64,000 nt of DNA from an uncultured Smithella sp. (GTDB lineage: Bacteria > Desulfobacterota > Syntrophia > Syntrophales > Smithellaceae). The position numbers and the translations under genes are program-made. Positions 43,555 to 54,246 of the stretch are shown here, one piece after another. Within the stretch, counting starts at the first letter, position 1. Each line of letters begins with the position of its first letter. The notes beneath the pieces are model-generated. The model did no database searches. It was not told the DNA's origin and saw nothing but the letters and a program-made list of their open reading frames with translations. Location: positions 12,457 through 76,456 of the forward strand of contig CAYMYR010000003.1 of assembly GCA_964394715.1 (NCBI GenBank), given 5' to 3'.

Positions 43555-44367
43555 TTAACGTCTGTAGGGTGGTGGAGGAGCGTAGCCGTCATTGTCCCAG
43601 ATCCGGTTTGATGAATACCGATCAGAATAGCCACGGCAATCAATGATATTCTTTTTGCACAGCGTTTGTCTCCACTCATATTTAATCAGGATGGATTCAG
43701 CGGCCCTTCTTTCCGGATTGAACGAAACCTGATAGGAAGGTGAATATTCTTCCCGTCCATAGCCGGTTCCGGCGCTATCCATGGCTTCGGACTGAGCTGA
43801 CGGTGCTGCCGCTTTGTTTCTGGATTCGAATTTACCTTCAGATTCTGAACGGTCCTTCTTCCAGGGTGCAGGAAAAATACCGTCCCTGTGCAGCCAGAAA
43901 CGGCGCTTTTCGGGATAAGCCACTACGGCGATCACACCCATGGCGGACTCGTCGCCAAAAGCGGCTGCGTATGAATCGGGAACATCGGTAAAGTAGAAAC
44001 GGTTGATAGTATCCTGAGCCGACCGCCAGCCCGCATATTCATAGGTGGCGTATGGTTCAAGAATATACATTCTTTCATGATTTTTAAGCCATGACTTCTG
44101 ACCTGAAATGATATTGCGGCCGTCCACTGCGATCACAACACCAACTCTGCGGTTGAGTTTGTTACGGACAACAATCCTGTAATGATCCCCTTTTACAGCT
44201 TCCGCATAAACTTTTTTCAGTTTCGGGTCATTTTTTACCGGGTAGAATGGCAGCAGACGGCCGTTATCGGACACAATGCTGACCTCTACCGTGTTGCCGG
44301 TTGTTTCGGCAGCGACAAAGCTGACCCACATGAATAAAACCGCACAAATTGTTAATAATGTTTTCAT
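43555..44367 (-). CDS. Hypothetical secreted protein
   Basis: Signal peptide MKTLLTICAVLFMWVSFVAA, long ORF behind a GGAGG RBS. Confidence 0.75.
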   Translation of the reverse strand: MKTLLTICAVLFMWVSFVAAETTGNTVEVSIVSDNGRLLPFYPVKNDPKLKKVYAEAVKGDHYRIVVRNKLNRRVGVVIAVDGRNIISGQKSWLKNHERMYILEPYATYEYAGWRSAQDTINRFYFTDVPDSYAAAFGDESAMGVIAVVAYPEKRRFWLHRDGIFPAPWKKDRSESEGKFESRNKAAAPSAQSEAMDSAGTGYGREEYSPSYQVSFNPERRAAESILIKYEWRQTLCKKNIIDCRGYSDRYSSNRIWDNDGYAPPPPYRR

Positions 44368-44483
44368 GTATTTTCCTCCTTCACACTGAAAATGTTTTGT
44401 CTTTTGTTTTTTAGACAAAACAAAGTGAAGAAAAGTTCCTGTTTTTTTATTTTTTAAGGGTTTTCGTGGAAGATATTATCCTC

Positions 44484-44512
44484 TTGACAAACAAGGCACC
44501 CTCTCCTATATT
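44484..44512 (+). promoter_or_regulatory. Sigma70 promoter of the cyanophycin-associated operon
   Basis: TTGACA-17 nt-TATATT. Confidence 0.65.
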
Positions 44513-44554
44513 CGAGCCCGCTTAAATGTAAATGAAATTGTTGTCATTTTAAAA

Positions 44555-46858
44555 ATGCGACCTATGACATCCATCGCCGGCCCCCCTGCGAACACACAAA
44601 AATCACTGCCTGATTCCTGGCGTGGCGAGGTGCAAAACTGCCTCGTTGCCGGCGAGACCATTGAGTCCTGGGTGGAGATTAATCTCGATACCCGCCTTCA
44701 CTTCGCCGAAAGCCTTGTAATTATTACCAATCGTCGCCTGCTGGCGTGCAGACCGGGCAAAGGCGCATGGGAAAGCTGGGATTTTCGTGAGGGACTTTCG
44801 CTGTGCCATCGCGACCATGCCGGTATTGGCACGCTGGAGCTGGTGGACGATAGCGGCCGGCTGGCCATCTGGCACTACACCATGGGCCGCAATATGGCCG
44901 CTCTCAATGTCATGAGGGCTTTTGAGGAACAACTAGAAAGTTTCGTCACCGGTAAGCCGGTTGCCAAACCTGCAGAAATTCTCTGCCCCAGGTGCAAGGC
45001 ACCCCTTCCACCCGATGTCGAGGAGTGTCCGATTTGTACCCGGGAAACGCAGATACCACCTTCCACATGGACGCTTTTTCGCTTATGGCGATTTGCCAGG
45101 CCTTACAAAGGTCGTCTATTGGCGGGCTTTGTGCTGACGCTGGCCTCCACCGGTGCTACCCTGGTACCCCCTTACCTGACCATGCCGCTGATGGACAACG
45201 TGCTGATCCCGTTCCAGAACGGCAAGCCCATCAACGTCCACCTGGTACAGCTATACCTTAGCGGCCTGCTGGGCGCCGCCCTGCTTGCCTGGGGTCTTGG
45301 CTGGGCCCGCACCTATATCCTGGCCGTGGTGTCCGAGAGAATCGGCCGTGACCTGCGCACCGCAACTTTTGAGCATCTGTTGCAGCTGTCGCTGGAATAC
45401 TTCGGCAACAAGCGCACCGGTGATTTGATGGCCCGCATCGGTTCGGAAACGGACCGCATCAACCTCTTTCTCTCGCTTCATCTGCTGGATTTTGCCACGG
45501 ACGTTCTGATGATCGTTCTTACGTCGATCATCCTTTTTTCCATCCATCCCTGGCTGGCTGTGGTCACCCTGCTTCCCCTGCCCATCATCGCCTGGATGAT
45601 CCACACCGTTCGCGATAGACTGAGAACCGGTTTTGAGAAGGTGGACCGCATTTGGGCCGAGGTTGCCAACGTACTGGCAGACGTCATTCCCGGTATCCGT
45701 GTGGTTAAGGCCTTTGCACAGGAAAGGCGTGAAGCCGCCCGTTTCCGTGAAGCCAATCACCACAACCTGGTTTTAAACGACCGCATCAACAGGATATGGT
45801 CTCTCTTCAGTCCCACGGTGACACTGCTTACCGAAGTCGGTCTGCTGGTCGTGTGGGGTTTTGGAATCTGGCAAATCAGCAAAGGAGAGATCACCGTCGG
45901 CGTGCTTACGGCCTTCCTCGCATACATCGGACGCTTCTATACCCGGCTGGACTCCATGAGCCGAATTGTTTCCGTGACACAGAAAGCCGCTGCGGGGACC
46001 AAGCGCATCTTTGATATCCTTGACCACGTGTCCAGTGTGCCGGAGCCTGTCAACCCGGTGCATCTCACTCAGGTGCAAGGCGAGATAGAGCTAAAGAACG
46101 TCGGCTTCCGCTATGGCACCCGTGCGGTCATTCATGATGTCAGCCTCAAGATCAAACCCGGCGAAATGATCGGGCTTGTCGGTCATTCCGGCTCCGGTAA
46201 GAGTACCCTTGTGAATCTTATCTGTCGTTTCTATGACGTAACCGAAGGTGCCGTGTTCATCGACGGTGTGGACGTGCGTTCCGTTCCGGTGGCCGAGTTC
46301 CGCAGAAACATCGGACTGGTGCTACAGGATCCTTTCCTTTTCTTCGGCACCATTGCCGACAACATCGCTTATGGCAAACCGGATGCCACCCGTGAAGAAA
46401 TCATCGGTGCCGCCCGCGCGGCCCATGCCCACGAGTTTATCCTTAGTCTGCCCCACGGCTACGATTCTCTACTGGGTGAAAGGGGCCAGGGCCTTTCCGG
46501 AGGAGAGCGCCAGCGTATCTCCATCGCGCGGGCCCTGCTCATTAATCCGAAGATCCTGATTCTCGACGAGGCTACCTCTTCGGTTGACACCGAGACCGAG
46601 AAGGAGATCCAGAAAGCCCTGGATAACCTTGTGCTTGGCCGCACCACCATCGCCATCGCCCACCGCCTGTCCACCCTCCGAAAGGCCGACCGGCTCGTGG
46701 CCATGGACCGTGGCCAGATCGTGGAAATGGGCAGTCACGATGAACTGATGGCAAAGGAAGGCCACTACTACCGTCTTTACCAGGCCCAGGCCAGAAACGT
46801 TGATACCGAACCGGAAATTCCCCGTGCCGTTAGTCAGTTCAGGGAGCACGCCGCATGA
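44555..46858 (+). CDS. Cyanophycin metabolism-associated ABC exporter (N-terminal PH-like domain, Zn ribbon, TMD and NBD)
   Basis: CPRC...CPIC ribbon, 6-TM exporter domain, GHSGSGKST, LSGGERQR, ILDEATS. Confidence 0.88.
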   Translation: MRPMTSIAGPPANTQKSLPDSWRGEVQNCLVAGETIESWVEINLDTRLHFAESLVIITNRRLLACRPGKGAWESWDFREGLSLCHRDHAGIGTLELVDDSGRLAIWHYTMGRNMAALNVMRAFEEQLESFVTGKPVAKPAEILCPRCKAPLPPDVEECPICTRETQIPPSTWTLFRLWRFARPYKGRLLAGFVLTLASTGATLVPPYLTMPLMDNVLIPFQNGKPINVHLVQLYLSGLLGAALLAWGLGWARTYILAVVSERIGRDLRTATFEHLLQLSLEYFGNKRTGDLMARIGSETDRINLFLSLHLLDFATDVLMIVLTSIILFSIHPWLAVVTLLPLPIIAWMIHTVRDRLRTGFEKVDRIWAEVANVLADVIPGIRVVKAFAQERREAARFREANHHNLVLNDRINRIWSLFSPTVTLLTEVGLLVVWGFGIWQISKGEITVGVLTAFLAYIGRFYTRLDSMSRIVSVTQKAAAGTKRIFDILDHVSSVPEPVNPVHLTQVQGEIELKNVGFRYGTRAVIHDVSLKIKPGEMIGLVGHSGSGKSTLVNLICRFYDVTEGAVFIDGVDVRSVPVAEFRRNIGLVLQDPFLFFGTIADNIAYGKPDATREEIIGAARAAHAHEFILSLPHGYDSLLGERGQGLSGGERQRISIARALLINPKILILDEATSSVDTETEKEIQKALDNLVLGRTTIAIAHRLSTLRKADRLVAMDRGQIVEMGSHDELMAKEGHYYRLYQAQARNVDTEPEIPRAVSQFREHAA

Positions 46859-47322
46859 ACACTTCCAACCTTCAATTCATGCACAACTCCTTTGGCAGGC
46901 TGATTCTCATCACGGCTGAGGGCACCCGGGAAGAAGTCGTTCCCATACGCTCTTTTCCCATCGCTGCCCCGGACAAAGGCATTTCTCTGGTCGGTGCGGA
47001 TGGTCACGAAGTGGCCTGGATTGATTGCCTTGCCGATCTTGAAGACGCCCAGCGCAACCTGGTGGAAGAAGAACTGGCCAATCGCGAGTTTGTACCGGAG
47101 ATCCGCGCACTCAAAGCCATTTCCGGGTTCACGATACCCAGTACATGGAAGGTCGATACCGACCGCGGTCCCTTCACTCTTGTGCTTGAGAGCGAAGACG
47201 ATATCCACCGCATCTCCCGAACCATGCTTTTGATCTCCGATAGCAACGGTATTCATTTCCTGGTGCGTGATCTGTCTAAACTGGACCGGAACAGCCGCAA
47301 ATTTCTGGATGGATTTCTATGA
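46855..47322 (+). CDS. DUF1854 family protein
   Basis: V.PIRSFPIAAP..GISL, REFVPEI, W.VDTDRG. Confidence 0.82.
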   Translation: MNTSNLQFMHNSFGRLILITAEGTREEVVPIRSFPIAAPDKGISLVGADGHEVAWIDCLADLEDAQRNLVEEELANREFVPEIRALKAISGFTIPSTWKVDTDRGPFTLVLESEDDIHRISRTMLLISDSNGIHFLVRDLSKLDRNSRKFLDGFL

Positions 47323-47431
47323 TTCTCTGGTTTAAAATAAATAGGATGACCGGTAATTCTGACAGCCATTCCGATCTGAAGGCGATACCGGGCAGTTCAC
47401 TGTATCCTGCCAGGATACCCGGAAAGGCACC

Positions 47432-49675
47432 ATGATGAGCAAAAGAGATATCGAATTCCTGAAGATTGTTTCATTACGCGGCCCCAACATGTGGACTTAC
47501 CGTCCTGTACTGGAGGCCTGGATCAATATCCATGGTCTGGAAGATGCAAACTCCAGCACCATACCCGGATTCTATGAGCGTCTGTCGGCGTGGCTTCCCT
47601 CCCTGGAAGACCACCGCTGCAGCTATGGAGAACGAGGCGGCTTCCTGCGTCGGGTAAAAGAGGGCACCTGGCCCGGTCATATCCTGGAGCACGTTACCCT
47701 GGAACTGCAAAATCTGGCCGGTCTCCCCGGTGGCTTCGGCAAGGCCCGCGGGACCAACCACCGTGGAATTTACAAGGTGGTCATACGCGCCTGGCAGGAG
47801 GATGTCACCCGAGCCGCCCTTCATGCCGCCCGTGACCTGATTTTGGCCGCCATGGAGGATCGTCCCTTTGACGTGACTGCCACCATTGAACACCTCACCG
47901 ACATGGCTGATTCTCTTTGCCTTGGCCCCAGCACAGCATGCATTGTCGATGCCGCAACAGAACGCGGCATTCCCACGATCCGTCTTCTGCCCGGCGGCAA
48001 CCTGGTACAGATCGGCTATGGTGCCTCCATGCGCCGAATCTGGACGGCGGAAACTGACCGGACCAGTGCAATTGCCGAGACCATCTCCCGCGACAAAGAC
48101 CTGACCAAGACATTGCTTTCCTCCTGTGGCGTTCCTGTACCCGAAGGCCGTGAGGTGGACAGCCCGGAGGATGCCTGGGAAGCTGCTCTGGATATCGGTC
48201 TGCCGGTTTGTGTCAAACCCATCGACGGCAATCACGGTCGCGGTGTCTTCATTGACGTAAAGACCAAAGAAGAAGTGGAAATGGCCTATTCCGTTGCCGT
48301 CAATGAAGGCAGCGGTGTTCTTGTAGAGCGCTCCATCCCGGGCACCGAACACCGCTTGCTCATTGTCGGCGGCAAACTGGCCGCCGCCACCCGCGGCGAC
48401 GTAGTGTATGTGGAGGGAGATGGCAAATCCACCGTAAAGGAACTGATCGGGAGTCAGATCAATTCCGACCCGCGCCGGGGCCCGACCGAACTGCATCCGC
48501 TTTCTGAAATTCTGATCGATTCCATCGTTACCATGGAACTGGCCCGTCAGGGCTTCACCGCGGAATCCATTCCGCCTGCAGGCAAAAAAATACTGATCCA
48601 GCGTACGGACAGCCACGCCTTCGACGTCACCGACGATGTTCACCCGGACAATGCTGCCCTGGCTGCTCTGGCTGCACGCATCATCGGCCTTGATATCGCC
48701 GGCATCGATCTGGTGGTGGAAAATATTTCCAGCCCCCTGTTCGAGCAGCATGGAGCAATCGTCGAGGTCAACGCCGGTCCTGGTCTGCTGATGCACCTTA
48801 AGCCCGCGGTTGGTCAGCCGCGTCCGGTGGGCAGGGCCATTGTCGATTACCTTTTTCCAGAAAGCGAAACAGGGCGTATACCCATCGTCGGCATTTCGGG
48901 TTCCAGGGGAAAGACCTCCGTTGCCCGTTGTCTTGGCCATCTGGTTCGTCTGTCCGGAAAGTTTGTCGGCCTTGCCAGCACCGATGGTCTTTTTCTGAAT
49001 CGCCGCCATGTGCAGAAGACTGACGCCGCCAATTGGACCGCGGCCCGCCGGTTGTTGCTCAACCGCTCCGTGGAGACGGCCATTCTGGAGAACGGTATCC
49101 GCGCCATTCTGGGCGAGGGTCTGGCTTACGATCGTTGTCAGGTAGGTGTGGTGACCAATCTGGATCCTGAAGAAAAGTATCCCGATTTCTCTATCGAGGA
49201 TACCGATGATCTATACAAGGTACTGCGCACACAGGTGGATGTTGTCCTAAAGACCGGCACATCCGTTCTCAATGCAGCCGACCCGAAATTGGTGGAAATG
49301 GCAAACCTCTCCGACGGAGAGGTGATCTTTTTTGCCCGGGACGCTGAAAGTCCCGTCATCATTGAGCATTGCGCCAGGGGGGGACGAGCCGCCGTAGTGA
49401 AACAAGGCGAGATTATCCTGGTTGCCGGCAATGTTGAGACCCGTTTGGCCCGCCTGACAGAAATTCCCAGCGTACAGTTAGGCAATGAACCGTTTCGCAT
49501 TGATAATGTTCTGGCGGTGCTGGCTGCGGGCTGGGCTTTGAAGATGCCGCTGGGACTGCTGATTGCCGGTATCAAGGCTTTCGAGCAGGAAGCACTGCAC
49601 GCCAGAGGTCGCACCGGCAACGGCCGCAGGCGCCATAAGAAGAACAGACAGGGCAACCGTGCCCATTTGAAATAG
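47432..49675 (+). CDS. cphA: Cyanophycin synthetase paralog CphA'-like (degenerate and truncated Mur-ligase domain)
   Basis: LRGPNMW, HILEHVTLELQ, CLGPST, ATP-grasp KPIDGNHGRGV and EVNAGPG. P-loop reads GSRGKT and the C-terminal DYGHN domain is absent. Confidence 0.85.
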   Translation: MMSKRDIEFLKIVSLRGPNMWTYRPVLEAWINIHGLEDANSSTIPGFYERLSAWLPSLEDHRCSYGERGGFLRRVKEGTWPGHILEHVTLELQNLAGLPGGFGKARGTNHRGIYKVVIRAWQEDVTRAALHAARDLILAAMEDRPFDVTATIEHLTDMADSLCLGPSTACIVDAATERGIPTIRLLPGGNLVQIGYGASMRRIWTAETDRTSAIAETISRDKDLTKTLLSSCGVPVPEGREVDSPEDAWEAALDIGLPVCVKPIDGNHGRGVFIDVKTKEEVEMAYSVAVNEGSGVLVERSIPGTEHRLLIVGGKLAAATRGDVVYVEGDGKSTVKELIGSQINSDPRRGPTELHPLSEILIDSIVTMELARQGFTAESIPPAGKKILIQRTDSHAFDVTDDVHPDNAALAALAARIIGLDIAGIDLVVENISSPLFEQHGAIVEVNAGPGLLMHLKPAVGQPRPVGRAIVDYLFPESETGRIPIVGISGSRGKTSVARCLGHLVRLSGKFVGLASTDGLFLNRRHVQKTDAANWTAARRLLLNRSVETAILENGIRAILGEGLAYDRCQVGVVTNLDPEEKYPDFSIEDTDDLYKVLRTQVDVVLKTGTSVLNAADPKLVEMANLSDGEVIFFARDAESPVIIEHCARGGRAAVVKQGEIILVAGNVETRLARLTEIPSVQLGNEPFRIDNVLAVLAAGWALKMPLGLLIAGIKAFEQEALHARGRTGNGRRRHKKNRQGNRAHLK

Positions 49676-49687
49676 AAAGAGGACTTC

Positions 49688-52258
49688 ATGGAAGTTTCAC
49701 GCATCCGGGCCCTGCGTGGCCCCAATCTTTGGACTCGCAATACAGCAATCGAGGCCATTGTCACCTGCGGTGAAAACGAGCGCTCCCTGGATACCCTCCC
49801 CGGTTTCGAAGAACGCCTGCGCGAGCGATTTCCGGAGATCGGATTCATGAACGCCAGCGGACATTACAAGGCCGTGCCCATGGCACGGGTTCTGGAGTTT
49901 GCCGTCCTGGGTCTGCAGGCCCAGGCCGGGTGTCCTGTTACCTTCAGCCGCACCTCGGAGACAATCAATAGCGGTACTTACCAAGTGGTGGTCGAATACA
50001 GCGAGGAAGATGTCGGCCGGCTTGCCTTCACATTGGCCGAACAACTCATCAAGGCCGCTCTTGAAAACAAGCCCTTCGACCGTGCCGGCGCTCTTGCCCG
50101 CCTTAAAGAACTGGATGAGCATGTTCGACTCGGCCCTTCCACCGGGTCTATCGTCGAGGCCGCCGTCGCACGTGGTATTCCTTACCGCCGATTGACACAG
50201 GGAAGCCTTGTACAGCTCGGCTGGGGCAGCAAACAACGCCGCATTCAGGCCGCCGAAACGGATCTTTCCAATGCCGTTGCTGAATCCATTGCCCAGGATA
50301 AGGAACTGACCAAACATTTGCTGCACGCCACCGGCTTGCCGGTGCCTTTAGGCCGTCCGGTCATCAGCGCCGACGATGCCTGGAACGCAGTTCATGAAAT
50401 CAGCGGTCCGGTAGTGGTGAAACCGCGGTACGGCAACCAGGGGAAAGGCATCTCGGTCAATATCCATACCCGCGAGGAGATCACGGCGGCCTATAATACA
50501 GCCATTGAATTCTGCGACGAAGTCCTGGTGGAGCGTTACCTGCCGGGTCATGACTACCGCTTTTTGGTCATTGGCAACAAGCTGATAGCCGCCGCCCGCC
50601 GTGACCCGCCACAGGTGATCGGTGATGGCGTGCACACTGTTCGCGAACTGGTTGAACAGGTAAACGCCGATCCGCGTCGCGGTGAAGGCCATGCGACGTC
50701 CCTTACCAAAATCCGCTTCGATGACATCGCCCTTGCCCGCCTGACCGTACAGGGTTTCCAGGCCGACTCCGTGCCGCCCAAAGGCAACCGCGTCATCCTG
50801 CGCAGCAATGCAAACCTGTCTACCGGCGGTACAGCCACAGACGTTACAGACGATGTACATCCGGAGCTGGCCACCTGCGTTGTTGCTGCCGCCCAGACCG
50901 TTGGCCTTGACATTTGCGGCATCGATGTGGTCTGTGAGACGGTCCTGAAACCACTGGAAGGACAGGGAGGCGGTATTGTCGAAGTGAATGCGGCCCCCGG
51001 TCTTCGTATGCACCTTTCACCCTCCTATGGCAAGGGTCGTTCTGTAGGAGAAGCCGTTGTTTCCATGATGTTCAAGCCGGGTGAGGATGCACGTATCCCC
51101 GTGGTGGCCGTTGCCGGAACCAACGGCAAAACCACCACAGCACGCCTCATCAGCAATATCCTGGCCAAAGACGGCAGATGTGTAGGCTTGACCAGCACAG
51201 ATGGCGTCTACGTTAAAGGCCGGCGTATCGACAAGGGCGACTGCAGCGGTCCTAAAAGCGCACGCAATGTCCTGCTGCACCCGGATGTAGACATTGCCGT
51301 TTTTGAGACCGCACGTGGCGGCGTGCTGCGTGAGGGTCTCGGTTTCGACCGTTGTAACGTGGCCGTGATTACCAATATCGGTACAGGTGACCACCTGGGT
51401 CTCAACTACATCACTACTGTTGAGGATCTGGCCGTCGTCAAGCGCGTTATTGTCGAGAACGTGACCAAAAGCGGCTATGCCGTGCTCAATGCCGCAGATC
51501 CCCACGTTGCGTCAATGGCGGCCAACTGCCCGGGCAAGGTCATCTATTTTGCCCGTGACAGTTTCCACCCTTTGATCGCCACCCATCGTGCACAGGGGAA
51601 AAGGGTAGTCTATGCCGAGGGAAATTTCATTGTCCAGGCCGAAGGCAGAACAGAGCATCGCATTCCCCTGGCATCTATCCCCATCACCAGCGGTGGCAAC
51701 ATCGGCTTCCAGATCGAGAATGCCATGGCTGCAACAGCGGCCTGCTGGGCACTGGGTGTTTCCCAGGATACCATCGCCGCCGGCCTTGCCGCCTTCGTGA
51801 ACGATGCCCAGATGGCACCTGGCCGGTTCAACGTCTTCGATTATCACGGTGCCACTCTCATTGCCGACTATGGGCACAATCCCGATGCTATTCAAGCTCT
51901 GGTCGATGCCATAGAAACTATGCCGGCTAAAAAGCGCTTGGTGGTTATCAGTGGTGCCGGTGATCGCCGCAACGAAGACATTCGCCGCCAGACAGAAATA
52001 CTGGGCCACGCCTTCGACGAGGTTATCCTTTACCAGGATGCCTGCCAACGCGGCCGAAAGGATGGTGAAGTTCTGGCTATTCTGCGTGAAGGCCTCGGAG
52101 GAACTGAACGCACACGCCATATCGAAGAAATTCACGGCGAGTTCCTGGCTATTGACGAGGCACTGAACCGCCTCGAAACCGGTGATCTTTGCCTGATCCT
52201 CATCGACCAGGTGGAGGAGGCCCTTGAGCATATCGCCAGGCGCATTGCCGAAAATTGA
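49688..52258 (+). CDS. cphA: Cyanophycin synthetase
   Basis: LRGPNLW, RLGPSTGSIV, KPRYGNQGKG, EVNAAPGLRMH, GTNGKTTT, ETARGG, DYGHNP. Confidence 0.95.
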   Translation: MEVSRIRALRGPNLWTRNTAIEAIVTCGENERSLDTLPGFEERLRERFPEIGFMNASGHYKAVPMARVLEFAVLGLQAQAGCPVTFSRTSETINSGTYQVVVEYSEEDVGRLAFTLAEQLIKAALENKPFDRAGALARLKELDEHVRLGPSTGSIVEAAVARGIPYRRLTQGSLVQLGWGSKQRRIQAAETDLSNAVAESIAQDKELTKHLLHATGLPVPLGRPVISADDAWNAVHEISGPVVVKPRYGNQGKGISVNIHTREEITAAYNTAIEFCDEVLVERYLPGHDYRFLVIGNKLIAAARRDPPQVIGDGVHTVRELVEQVNADPRRGEGHATSLTKIRFDDIALARLTVQGFQADSVPPKGNRVILRSNANLSTGGTATDVTDDVHPELATCVVAAAQTVGLDICGIDVVCETVLKPLEGQGGGIVEVNAAPGLRMHLSPSYGKGRSVGEAVVSMMFKPGEDARIPVVAVAGTNGKTTTARLISNILAKDGRCVGLTSTDGVYVKGRRIDKGDCSGPKSARNVLLHPDVDIAVFETARGGVLREGLGFDRCNVAVITNIGTGDHLGLNYITTVEDLAVVKRVIVENVTKSGYAVLNAADPHVASMAANCPGKVIYFARDSFHPLIATHRAQGKRVVYAEGNFIVQAEGRTEHRIPLASIPITSGGNIGFQIENAMAATAACWALGVSQDTIAAGLAAFVNDAQMAPGRFNVFDYHGATLIADYGHNPDAIQALVDAIETMPAKKRLVVISGAGDRRNEDIRRQTEILGHAFDEVILYQDACQRGRKDGEVLAILREGLGGTERTRHIEEIHGEFLAIDEALNRLETGDLCLILIDQVEEALEHIARRIAEN

Positions 52259-52349
52259 TCAACCGCCCGCATAAGACTGCAGTCAGAATCGCAGAAGGCA
52301 ACCATTGACAAAGATCTGATGGCTTTGAAGGGGAGGTGTTTGTCAAAAC

Positions 52350-52790
52350 ATGAATAACTTGAAAAATTATCGTTATTATCTTTTGATTGTTCCTGTTTTT
52401 TTTGTATCTTGTGCTTCACTGCCATATAAAAATCTTGAGTGTACGTATCATTATGGCGGCTCTACGCAATCTATGATCATAAAGCCGGTCACGGATCCTT
52501 ACAAGGTTGAAGCAATACAAATTACATTTAAAAATTCTAAAACTGAAGAAATAATCAAAACGAATTTTCTTTTCAAGGTGGTCTATATCGTGCCTCCGGC
52601 TGATGATGCGGCGATTAATATTTATGTTTATTATCTTTCAAAGGCAGGACAAGCGCCAGTCCATCAGGTGAAGTATTTACCCCCGTTTTTAGTCGGGGAT
52701 GACAACCAGGCGTTCGGATTTACAGGCTTGCAAAATGTTTATGAACCCGCTCTGGGAAGACTCTTTCAATATTGCTGCCGTTGGAAATAA
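52350..52790 (+). CDS. Hypothetical lipoprotein
   Basis: Basic N-terminus and lipobox-like FFVSC, C-terminal GFTGLQNVYEP. Confidence 0.65.
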   Translation: MNNLKNYRYYLLIVPVFFVSCASLPYKNLECTYHYGGSTQSMIIKPVTDPYKVEAIQITFKNSKTEEIIKTNFLFKVVYIVPPADDAAINIYVYYLSKAGQAPVHQVKYLPPFLVGDDNQAFGFTGLQNVYEPALGRLFQYCCRWK

Positions 52791-52809
52791 ATATTTTGAA
52801 AAGGGAAGC

Positions 52810-53808
52810 ATGAAAATTTCAAGGTTGATGATTTTTTTGTTTCTATTTTTATTATTTCCCCGTGTAGGTTTTGCTCAGGACCAGATTGTGCGGATCAGTT
52901 TTGTGGGAGATATAATGGTTGCAGGGCTGCCAGGTGATCTTATCATCAAGGGCCGCGACCCTTTTACTGCATTTGCTGATTTTTTTAAATCCAGTGACAT
53001 CAATATAGGAAACCTGGAAACATCGGTTGCGTCAGGGGGTAAACCTTTGAACAAACCTTATATTTTCCGGGCAGCTCCTGCAACAGTTCCCGTTTTAAAA
53101 CGTTATTTCGACGCCATGTCACTGGCCAATAATCATTCGGGAGATTATGGACAGGGCGCATTGAAGGAGACCTTTCAGCATTTAAAAAAAGGCGGACTCA
53201 GTTACTTTGGCGCCGGCTATAATTTAAGTGAAGCGCACACTCCGCTTATCATTGAGCGAAAAGGATTCCGTATTGCTCTTTTGGGATACAACGAGTTTTT
53301 TCCAAGACAATTCGAGGCGGGTGCAAGCATGCCGGGGGTTGCCTGGAGTTCTGAAGATGAGCAGGTGGTAGCCGACATTAAAAGGACGCTCCGGCAAGAT
53401 AATCCGGATATCGTGATCACTTACATGCATTGGGGCTGGGAGAACGAACCGCTTCCCTGTGAAAGGCAGAAAATGATGGCCCGTAAAATGATTGATGCCG
53501 GTGCCACGGTTGTCGTCGGCAGCCATCCACACATCCTTCAAACCGTTGAGTATTACAATGGAGGTTTGATTGTATACAGTCTGGGTAATTTTGTGTTCGA
53601 TGAATATGATGATGACGCCGGTCGCACCGGCTGGCTGCTTCGATTAAATTTTGATCGCAAGGGTCTTCTGAATTGGGACACCATCGTTTCATACATAGAT
53701 CCGAAAACCGGTTTCCCTCATCCCAAACTGGATATCAAGAGCCCCTGCGGGAACAGGCAAAGGCAAGAGATCACATCTTGTATTGCGGGAACACCATTGA
53801 AAGAATGA
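52810..53808 (+). CDS. CapA-family (poly-gamma-glutamate capsule protein-like) metallophosphoesterase, exported
   Basis: Signal peptide, GDIM, GNLE, ANNHSGDYG, MHWG, GSHPH, YSLGNFVF. Confidence 0.9.
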   Translation: MKISRLMIFLFLFLLFPRVGFAQDQIVRISFVGDIMVAGLPGDLIIKGRDPFTAFADFFKSSDINIGNLETSVASGGKPLNKPYIFRAAPATVPVLKRYFDAMSLANNHSGDYGQGALKETFQHLKKGGLSYFGAGYNLSEAHTPLIIERKGFRIALLGYNEFFPRQFEAGASMPGVAWSSEDEQVVADIKRTLRQDNPDIVITYMHWGWENEPLPCERQKMMARKMIDAGATVVVGSHPHILQTVEYYNGGLIVYSLGNFVFDEYDDDAGRTGWLLRLNFDRKGLLNWDTIVSYIDPKTGFPHPKLDIKSPCGNRQRQEITSCIAGTPLKE

Positions 53809-53930
53809 TTTCAGACAGACATCAGCTCAAATTTGGTTGATTTGCATACATGAACGGACCGTCAATATAAATTGACAAATGGCCACCTTTCCTATAGTTC
53901 GCGTCAAAGAAAAAAGAAGATCCTGATACC

Positions 53931-54076
53931 AAGCCGCATATAGTTGCCAATTTCAGAGTGGCAACTACCGATAGGGGAGGACTTGTTTCTTTTTGCGCTT
54001 CCTTACGGAACGCGCATCCGGTCTTTGGCTAACTTTGTTGGCATTGTCGCGTGCCCCCAGGCATGGGGGTCGGCTT
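53931..54076 (+). ncRNA. Candidate structured RNA (multi-branch fold), family not recognised
   Basis: Seven mutually compatible nested helices (see findings). Upstream TTGACA (53872)...TATAGT (53893), with a short 15-nt spacer. Confidence 0.5.
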
Positions 54077-54111
54077 CCTCAACGTATAACCTAAAGGTCA
54101 CGCGTCAATAA

Positions 54112-54246
54112 TACGCCTGCGGAGCCTCCTCCTTGCCGCCGCGTTATCCTTTGAATGCAACTTGGTATAACCCCATCTCCGGAGCGGAGGGACAAACTGT
54201 TACTCAAAGGGATTTCCGGAATCGGAGATACAGGAAGGGTCGCGTA
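54112..54246 (-). ncRNA. Candidate rod-shaped RNA with 6S-like features
   Basis: 135-nt imperfect inverted repeat with internal loops. G-U pairs favour the minus strand. Confidence 0.35.

Follow-up and report, generated by a model that had tools for sequence, protein, structure and literature searches.

A cyanophycin synthetase and exporter cassette joined to a small-protein/CapA pair: a composite, clade-restricted locus of Smithellaceae

A four-gene cassette composed of an ATP-binding cassette (ABC) transporter gene, a DUF1854 gene and two cyanophycin synthetase genes (cphA' and cphA) was described by Price et al. (bioRxiv 10.1101/072470), who reported that its genes are cofit and show motility and stress phenotypes, that the Cupriavidus enzymes formed no cyanophycin and that a cyanophycinase is missing, and who already proposed that the cassette exports an amino-acid polymer, to the cell envelope. 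Other described systems that can be compared with it are the cyanobacterial CphA1/CphB and CphA2 enzymes, the PgsBCA(E)/CapBCA(E) proteins of Bacillus, and MslH, a calcium-dependent epimerase of the C-terminal tryptophan in a lasso-peptide precursor (PMC10406935). Here we analyse a locus (44555-53808) in a 64,000-nucleotide (nt) stretch of DNA from an uncultured Smithella sp., referred to as the window, in which a cassette of this kind is followed by the genes of a small lipoprotein and of an exported CapA-family enzyme. The first-pass annotation of this DNA, made from the sequence alone, had read the six genes as a possible exported amino-acid polymer system parallel to a capsule pathway. Its interpretation is partly supported, and the core of its export inference is not new, because export had already been proposed by Price et al. 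The find is a clade-restricted arrangement of a known cassette, plus the definition of an unnamed two-gene CapA module; a literature search returned no paper linking cyanophycin genes with CapA, or Smithella with cyanophycin, and DUF1854 turned up in a single paper.

The locus shares with the betaproteobacterial cassette its four genes and their order (as in the Rhodocyclaceae/Azonexaceae loci L021, L023 and L024), the 4-nt overlap between the ABC and DUF1854 genes, and the absence of an adjacent cyanophycinase gene. It differs from it in the host, here a Syntrophales anaerobe, in a clade-specific sigma-70-type promoter, and in the lipoprotein/CapA pair, which directly follows the cassette here, precedes it in a sister subclade and does not accompany it in the 77 other species sampled. 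Like the Bacillus systems, it encodes an extracytoplasmic PGA_cap protein beside ATP-dependent amide ligases with a Mur-ligase-type domain, but CapB and CapC are missing, the ligases are cyanophycin synthetases and export would proceed through an ABC transporter. PgsA is membrane-anchored, whereas the CapA protein of the window is expected to be soluble or exported, with a predicted cleavable signal peptide and a dedicated small partner. The window cphA has the full N-G-M architecture of the cyanobacterial enzyme, but the window has no cyanophycinase and its cassette is tied to an exporter; cphA' resembles CphA2 in its truncated M domain (PMC10273328) and differs from it in keeping the whole Mur_ligase_M domain, the M domain of CphA2 being shorter. 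CapA and MslH are only about 20% identical in sequence; CapA is predicted to be periplasmic, is approximately 100 residues shorter, keeps the GxHxH motif (GSHPH) and has no lasso-peptide genes nearby.

The evidence best supports a composite locus, built from two units that have separate histories: unit 1, the ABC/DUF1854/cphA'/cphA cassette (44474-52258); and unit 2, the lipoprotein/CapA pair (52350-53808). The six open reading frames (ORFs) are co-oriented on the + strand, with intergenic gaps, in order, of -4, 109, 12, 91 and 19 nt; the coordinates, the spacing and, by Pfam and NCBIfam scores, the gene identities agree exactly with the first-pass annotation. The composition breaks between the units: the G+C content (GC) of the first four genes is 0.53-0.58 (window mean 0.496), compared with 0.376 in the lipoprotein gene and 0.458 in the CapA gene; at third codon positions (GC3) the values are 0.60-0.67, 0.35 and 0.46, respectively. 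The suspicion, voiced as a caveat in the first-pass annotation, that the two AT-rich terminal genes were separate arrivals is borne out by this break, by the different nearest relatives of the two units and by the occurrence of the pair as a free-standing unit elsewhere. A joint transfer of the six genes out of a single betaproteobacterial donor was rejected, since the identities to betaproteobacterial homologues are 52-58% for CapA versus 79-85% for the cph genes, and GC3 is strongly different.

Unit 1 starts with the 5' block boundary and the cph promoter (44474..44554, +), located by a promoter scan and by the start of inter-locus homology. The first gene (44555..46858, +; 767 amino acids, aa) encodes a 'cyanophycin metabolism-associated ABC transporter' (NF052233, 1418.2 bits against a cutoff of 880, residues 12-755), a half-transporter with exporter-type ABC_membrane (PF00664) and ABC_tran (PF00005) domains. 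Its N-terminal cytoplasmic extension of approximately 170 aa (44555-45070) carries a CPRC...CPIC zinc-ribbon-like motif (CxxC...CxxC); the extension lies inside the NF052233 model and has no Pfam domain. The DUF1854 gene (46855..47322, +; 155 aa) lies directly 3' of the ABC gene, with a 4-nt overlap, and was identified by NF052234 (206.8 bits against a cutoff of 150) and PF08909 (E = 8.5e-47); its product is presumed to be a cytoplasmic partner subunit of the exporter. A search for solved structures of DUF1854 or of the ABC N-terminal extension found none. The product of cphA' (47432..49675, +; 747 aa; PRK14016, PF18921, PF08245) matches positions 1-725 of the 871 of PRK14016 with 1029 bits, and comprises the N domain, the ATP-grasp G domain and Mur_ligase_M, without Mur_ligase_C (no PF02875); where the Mur-ligase C-terminal domain would be, it ends in a strongly basic low-complexity tail (RGRTGNGRRRHKKNRQGNRAHLK; 49600-49675). 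The product of cphA (49688..52258, +; 856 aa; PF18921, PF08245, PF02875) scores 991.8 bits with TIGR02068 (cutoff 850) and has full N, G and M domains, with both Mur_ligase_M and Mur_ligase_C. The sequence features that define the cassette were all found in the window: an ABC protein above the NF052233 cutoff, DUF1854 downstream, and cphA in tandem with a truncated cphA'. None of the approximately 35 window ORFs scanned with Pfam belongs to the cyanophycinase or isoaspartyl dipeptidase families, which agrees with the first-pass annotation within the scope of the window. The sister subclade has a third cyanophycin-synthetase-like gene, GC-rich and missing from the window, right after cphA (L022, 15359-17557; L103, 15514-17649); its product, of 711-732 aa, comprises a Cyanophycin_syn N domain and ATP-grasp, and no Mur-ligase domains.

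The distribution of the cassette was surveyed through DUF1854, using one genome per species: at least 574 genomes matched, and the best 80 loci, which were analysed, come nearly all from Betaproteobacteria. With the proteins of a Rhodocyclaceae metagenome-assembled genome (MAG; L021), the window shares 84% identity for ABC, 79% for cphA' and 83% for cphA, and the values for L023 and L024 are similar; across these three Rhodocyclaceae/Azonexaceae loci, identity spans 79-85% for the cph genes and 84-85% for the ABC gene. Neighbour-joining trees of CphA and of the ABC protein both unite all Syntrophales copies in a single clade, to which these Rhodocyclaceae/Azonexaceae copies are sister. This placement, together with the GC excess of the four genes, points to the cassette having entered the ancestor of the Syntrophales group once, by horizontal transfer, and indicates that unit 1 is a Betaproteobacteria-type cassette probably acquired from Rhodocyclales-like donors. 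An independent double acquisition, with the cassette arriving on either side of the pair, was rejected, the Syntrophales cph genes being a single clade. The nearest relatives of the window proteins belong to 'Deltaproteobacteria bacterium ADurb.Bin151' (92-98% identity), an uncultured Smithella, a Smithellaceae MAG and an uncultured Syntrophaceae MAG (the Smithellaceae are a family of Syntrophales, Thermodesulfobacteriota), and near-identical sequence was found in many digester, sludge and sediment metagenomes.

Unit 2 starts with the small lipoprotein gene (52350..52790, +; 146 aa), recognised by its lipobox and by a homologue alignment: its N-terminus ends in FFVSC, as expected of a lipoprotein signal. 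Neither Pfam nor NCBIfam has a match for the protein; ten close relatives were found among 5.8 billion proteins, and a profile search extended the family to 181 representatives at 50% identity, nearly all of 120-185 aa. Its AlphaFold2 (AF2) model (mean predicted confidence, pLDDT, 77.5) is all-beta, with eight strands; compared with the Protein Data Bank (PDB) by Foldseek, it gave nothing at E <= 0.001, and the fold offers no functional lead. The second gene (52810..53808, +; 332 aa) encodes the exported CapA/PGA_cap enzyme (PF09587, E = 1.8e-70; fold match). The mechanical ORF opens at 52699; the start at 52810 (MKISRL), where the signal peptide begins and which yields the 19-nt gap, is most likely the true one. 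The N-terminus, MKISRLMIFLFLFLLFPRVGFA|QD (...GFA|QD), reads by eye as a cleavable Sec signal peptide. A pair of cysteines is invariant in each of the two proteins (C31 and C143 of the small protein, C313 and C324 at the C-terminus of CapA), which fits a periplasmic location.

The closest CapA relatives outside the clade are 52-58% identical and belong to Betaproteobacteria (Propionivibrio, Accumulibacter, Uliginosibacterium, Noviherbaspirillum and Rhodoferax). In all four betaproteobacterial CapA loci examined (L014, L015/16, L017/18 and L115/116), a small ORF homologous to the window lipoprotein (hmmsearch E = 7e-24, 3e-17, 2.5e-13 and 5e-22) precedes CapA with a 4-nt overlap, and no DUF1854 or cyanophycin synthetase gene lies within 10 kb of CapA. 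A natural fusion also exists: P0382, an exported protein of 502 aa that is not encoded in the window, joins the small domain (47-149) to PGA_cap (196-430), with a Pro/Ala-rich linker in place of the CapA signal peptide. Because of the betaproteobacterial pairs, the P0382 fusion and the cysteine pairs, the small protein and CapA can be regarded as a conserved two-gene periplasmic unit; from the sequences, the pair appears to be autonomous and widely distributed, and its small member is predicted to be a disulfide-bonded beta-protein. Lipidation is not conserved in the small-protein family, since several homologues have ordinary signal peptides; the anchor role that the first-pass annotation had assigned to the lipoprotein is consequently no family property. 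In P0001, which is 89% identical to the window lipoprotein and has 27 member sequences, the lipobox cysteine is replaced by phenylalanine (FFVSF), suggesting that lipidation may be dispensable even within the clade. As to the neighbours of the betaproteobacterial pairs, a co-oriented Peptidase_M20 gene lies 12 nt upstream of the pair in L115 (8080-10993; also L116), a betaproteobacterium-like contig, and a YkuD L,D-transpeptidase gene lies downstream of the pair in L017; these neighbours hint at peptide or cell-wall substrates.

The AF2 model of CapA (pLDDT 90.3) has a calcineurin-like metallophosphoesterase fold, and its best PDB match is MslH (8GQ9; Foldseek E = 4e-21, TM score 0.74), followed by generic metallophosphoesterases. 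In MslH, calcium is bound by E44, N87, H259 and H261, and two His/Asp dyads, H88/D91 and H295/D11, have been described (PMC10406935). These residues were mapped on CapA through a HMMER alignment to 8GQ9, and their conservation was checked across 43 homologues. Seven of the eight metal-binding and catalytic residues are kept, and are invariant or nearly so: MslH D11, E44, N87, H88, D91, H261 and H295 correspond to CapA D34, E70, N108, H109, D112, H207 and H241. The eighth, H259, is replaced by Tyr or Phe in the CapA family, and an extra histidine, H239, restores the classical GxHxH (GSHPH; phosphoesterase motif V). Since the MslH residues map onto conserved positions, CapA is an active-looking calcineurin-fold enzyme, which by analogy could act by epimerisation, as MslH does, or by hydrolysis; the one relative with a characterised function works on the carboxyl end of a peptide. 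CapA scores 65.4 bits with the MslH equivalog model (NF038314), below its cutoff of 700, and CapB and CapC are missing from the locus; it is neither an MslH orthologue nor part of a poly-gamma-glutamate system.

Approximately 35 loci of the Smithellaceae/Syntrophaceae clade have the two units side by side, with two gene orders and at least five flank contexts: context A (window, L002, L011, L012, L019, L020, L101, L102 and L105-L114), with the six genes between a secreted 287-aa protein and PBP1A; context B (L001), between PsiF/HpaB and acetoacetate decarboxylase (ADC); context C (L099/L100, Smithellaceae), between a radical-SAM cluster and prfA-rpmE-rho; context D1 (L022/L013), in which the permuted order lipoprotein-CapA-ABC-DUF1854-cphA'-cphA-third ligase lies between Fic and hsdR; and context D2 (L003-L010), in which mnmG is followed by lipoprotein-CapA-ABC and so on. 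Seen from the lipoprotein side, every locus with a lipoprotein at least 56% identical to that of the window adjoins a cph cassette, where the contig is readable. The nucleotide homology between contexts starts at approximately 44474, just 5' of the -35 box, and ends approximately 67 nt past the CapA stop codon when context A (window) is compared with context C (L099), defining the 3' block boundary (53809..53875, +), or at the stop codon itself for context B. Both outer flanks changed at least three to four times while the inner junction stayed unbroken, and the one internal rearrangement preserved adjacency and orientation. The two units diverge in parallel across loci, and the within-clade divergence of the cph genes and of CapA is similar (approximately 77-81% identity, window versus L022); this parallel divergence is consistent with joint inheritance since the clade ancestor. 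Of the 80 species-representative DUF1854 loci, three have a CapA/lipoprotein homologue next to the cassette, and all three are from Syntrophales (L019, L020 and L022). The first-pass annotation, in which lipoprotein and CapA accompany the cyanophycin synthetase genes, is therefore upheld inside this clade, and fails in the 77 non-Syntrophales loci and in the four betaproteobacterial CapA loci.

The cph promoter is sigma-70-like (TTGACA-17-TATATT, 11/12 matches; -35 at 44484, -10 ending at 44512). It is conserved in all the Syntrophales contexts and not alignable in Rhodocyclaceae; in the permuted order (D) it is found 3' of the pair, between the CapA and ABC genes. The earlier description of six genes behind one promoter consequently holds for orders A-C and not for the permuted order. 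The 91-nt spacer between the two units (52259..52349, +) was scanned for terminator-like sites between cphA and the lipoprotein gene, and none was found; it contains a Shine-Dalgarno sequence (GGAGG) approximately 12 nt before the ATG of the lipoprotein gene, is moderately conserved in contexts A, B and C, and bears no relation to what precedes the lipoprotein gene in the permuted loci. No promoter belonging to the pair itself is recognisable in orders A-C, and a lipoprotein promoter common to both gene orders was rejected, the upstream regions of A-C and D being unalignable. Metatranscriptome contigs from RNA runs lie over the junction (X25, 52043-52433; X26, 52266-52416; X30, 52098-52335 abutting 52335-52519), which agrees in part with the transcription across 52258-52350 that the first-pass annotation implied. 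In the window order, the pair is probably co-transcribed with the cph genes by read-through from the cph promoter.

Other features were observed around the block. A 287-aa secreted protein (43555-44418, - strand), divergent from the cph promoter region, is conserved in the context A relatives only, and has no Pfam or NCBIfam match. The spacer between CapA and PBP1A harbours an insertion of approximately 245-260 nt (53912-54171) resembling a miniature inverted-repeat transposable element (MITE), with imperfect terminal inverted repeats (53926-53939 / 54155-54168); the closest relatives L105-L109 lack it, their flanks lying approximately 21 nt apart, and partial copies exist in L019 (4227-4337) and L099 (840-948). 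Metatranscriptome sequences pile up on the 3' part of this insertion (54075-54161; depth 86 in X30, 13 in X25), with differing sequences continuing beyond. Rfam and tRNA scans of the 43-55 kb region gave no match, so this RNA depth spike downstream of CapA corresponds to no known RNA family.

We favour the reading of the locus as a composite operon whose pair processes the exported cph product in the periplasm, and consider a functional link between the two units plausible, at about even odds. The path that we infer is the following: in the cytoplasm, CphA and CphA' would assemble a polymer or oligomer that has an Asp backbone and contains Arg; the exporter, with DUF1854, would carry the polymer or its fragments across the inner membrane, as Price et al. 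proposed; and the periplasmic CapA-like enzyme, with its small partner, would modify or trim the peptide at the carboxyl end. A more far-reaching version, which we regard as doubtful, is that the pair is a periplasmic tailoring complex for exported non-ribosomal amino-acid polymers which in Smithellaceae was recruited to the cph product (for example for carboxyl-terminal epimerisation or trimming), giving an extracytoplasmic, possibly D-residue-containing, cyanophycin-like envelope polymer. Several observations weigh against a functional link. CapA and the lipoprotein were found beside the cassette in none of the 77 non-Syntrophales loci, 56 of which combine a complete cassette with 1 kb or more of readable sequence on either side, so they are no required part of the cph/ABC system. 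L103/L104 carry the cassette without lipoprotein or CapA within reach; the CphA tree places them with L022, whose third ligase gene they also possess, and a Y1 transposase lies nearby. The two gene orders correspond to two subclades, which means one origin and one permutation, and a tandem duplication with (reciprocal) loss, or a circular intermediate, would keep the adjacency without selection. Shared regulation is not a conserved trait, the permuted order having the pair upstream of the cph promoter; and the RNA contigs over the junction have a depth of only 2-6 and no strand information, with DNA carry-over possible. These are largely the points that favour a historical accident, in which the cassette landed beside a resident pair in the clade ancestor, the pair acts on cell-wall or other periplasmic peptides, and the cph product is cytoplasmic or exported independently: besides the absence of the association elsewhere, the pair-less L103/L104 and the differing promoter arrangement, the betaproteobacterial pairs are free-standing with varied neighbours (YkuD in L017, M20 in L115; PBP1A in the window), and the monophyly of the Syntrophales cph clade makes the linkage one evolutionary origin. 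We hold such an accident to be a serious, if less probable, alternative, against which speak the repeated replacement of the outer flanks around an intact inner junction, the retention of adjacency and orientation in the sole internal rearrangement, the homology between contexts that stops exactly at the ends of the six-gene block, and, in orders A-C, the lack of a recognisable promoter for the pair together with RNA contigs crossing the junction.

The two remaining explanations place the genes in known types of pathway. The capsule-like pathway of the first-pass annotation, analogous to poly-gamma-glutamate synthesis, would make CapA integral to export or polymerisation and have the lipoprotein anchor a surface Asp/Arg polymer; the locus does combine an exporter with a PGA_cap protein and with amide ligases that have a domain of Mur-ligase type, and polymer export to the cell envelope was proposed by Price et al. 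The parallel fails on its ligase and membrane components: no CapB/PgsB- or CapC/PgsC-type gene is present among the six genes, nor do these families appear among the Pfam/NCBIfam matches of the six genes and the flanking genes. Moreover, the CapA signal peptide reads as cleavable, whereas PgsA has a membrane anchor; the small-protein family does not conserve lipidation; and the cassette works without CapA where phenotypes have been measured, CapA not being beside it in any of the 77 non-Syntrophales loci. We therefore consider this pathway improbable. Still less credible to us is that cyanophycin is simply stored as nitrogen-reserve granules in the cytoplasm, with ABC/DUF1854 moving amino acids, dipeptides or other compounds and the CapA pair irrelevant to it. 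Cyanophycin is established as a cytoplasmic reserve (PMC10206079), and cphA scores above the cyanophycin synthetase equivalog cutoff; on the other side stand the lack of a cyanophycinase in the cluster or among the window ORFs scanned, the exporter-type PF00664 domain of the ABC protein, and the results of Price et al., in which the Cupriavidus homologues made no cyanophycin and the four genes were cofit, their phenotypes concerning motility and stress.

The cassette is widespread (at least 574 species-representative genomes) and its mutants have fitness phenotypes; a lineage in which it is locked to an extracytoplasmic pair gives circumstantial support to the export hypothesis. The two-gene module, a small two-cysteine beta-protein with a CapA-like enzyme, is a starting point for the study of Gram-negative 'CapA family proteins' without a poly-gamma-glutamate system. 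If the pair were indeed a tailoring complex, it would provide the first genetic handle on the product of the orphan betaproteobacterial cph cassette and on the function of the CapA proteins, numbering in the hundreds, that stand alone in Gram-negative bacteria. Syntrophs of the Smithella type abound in anaerobic digesters and sludge, and it would be of some ecological interest if they made an envelope or storage polymer.

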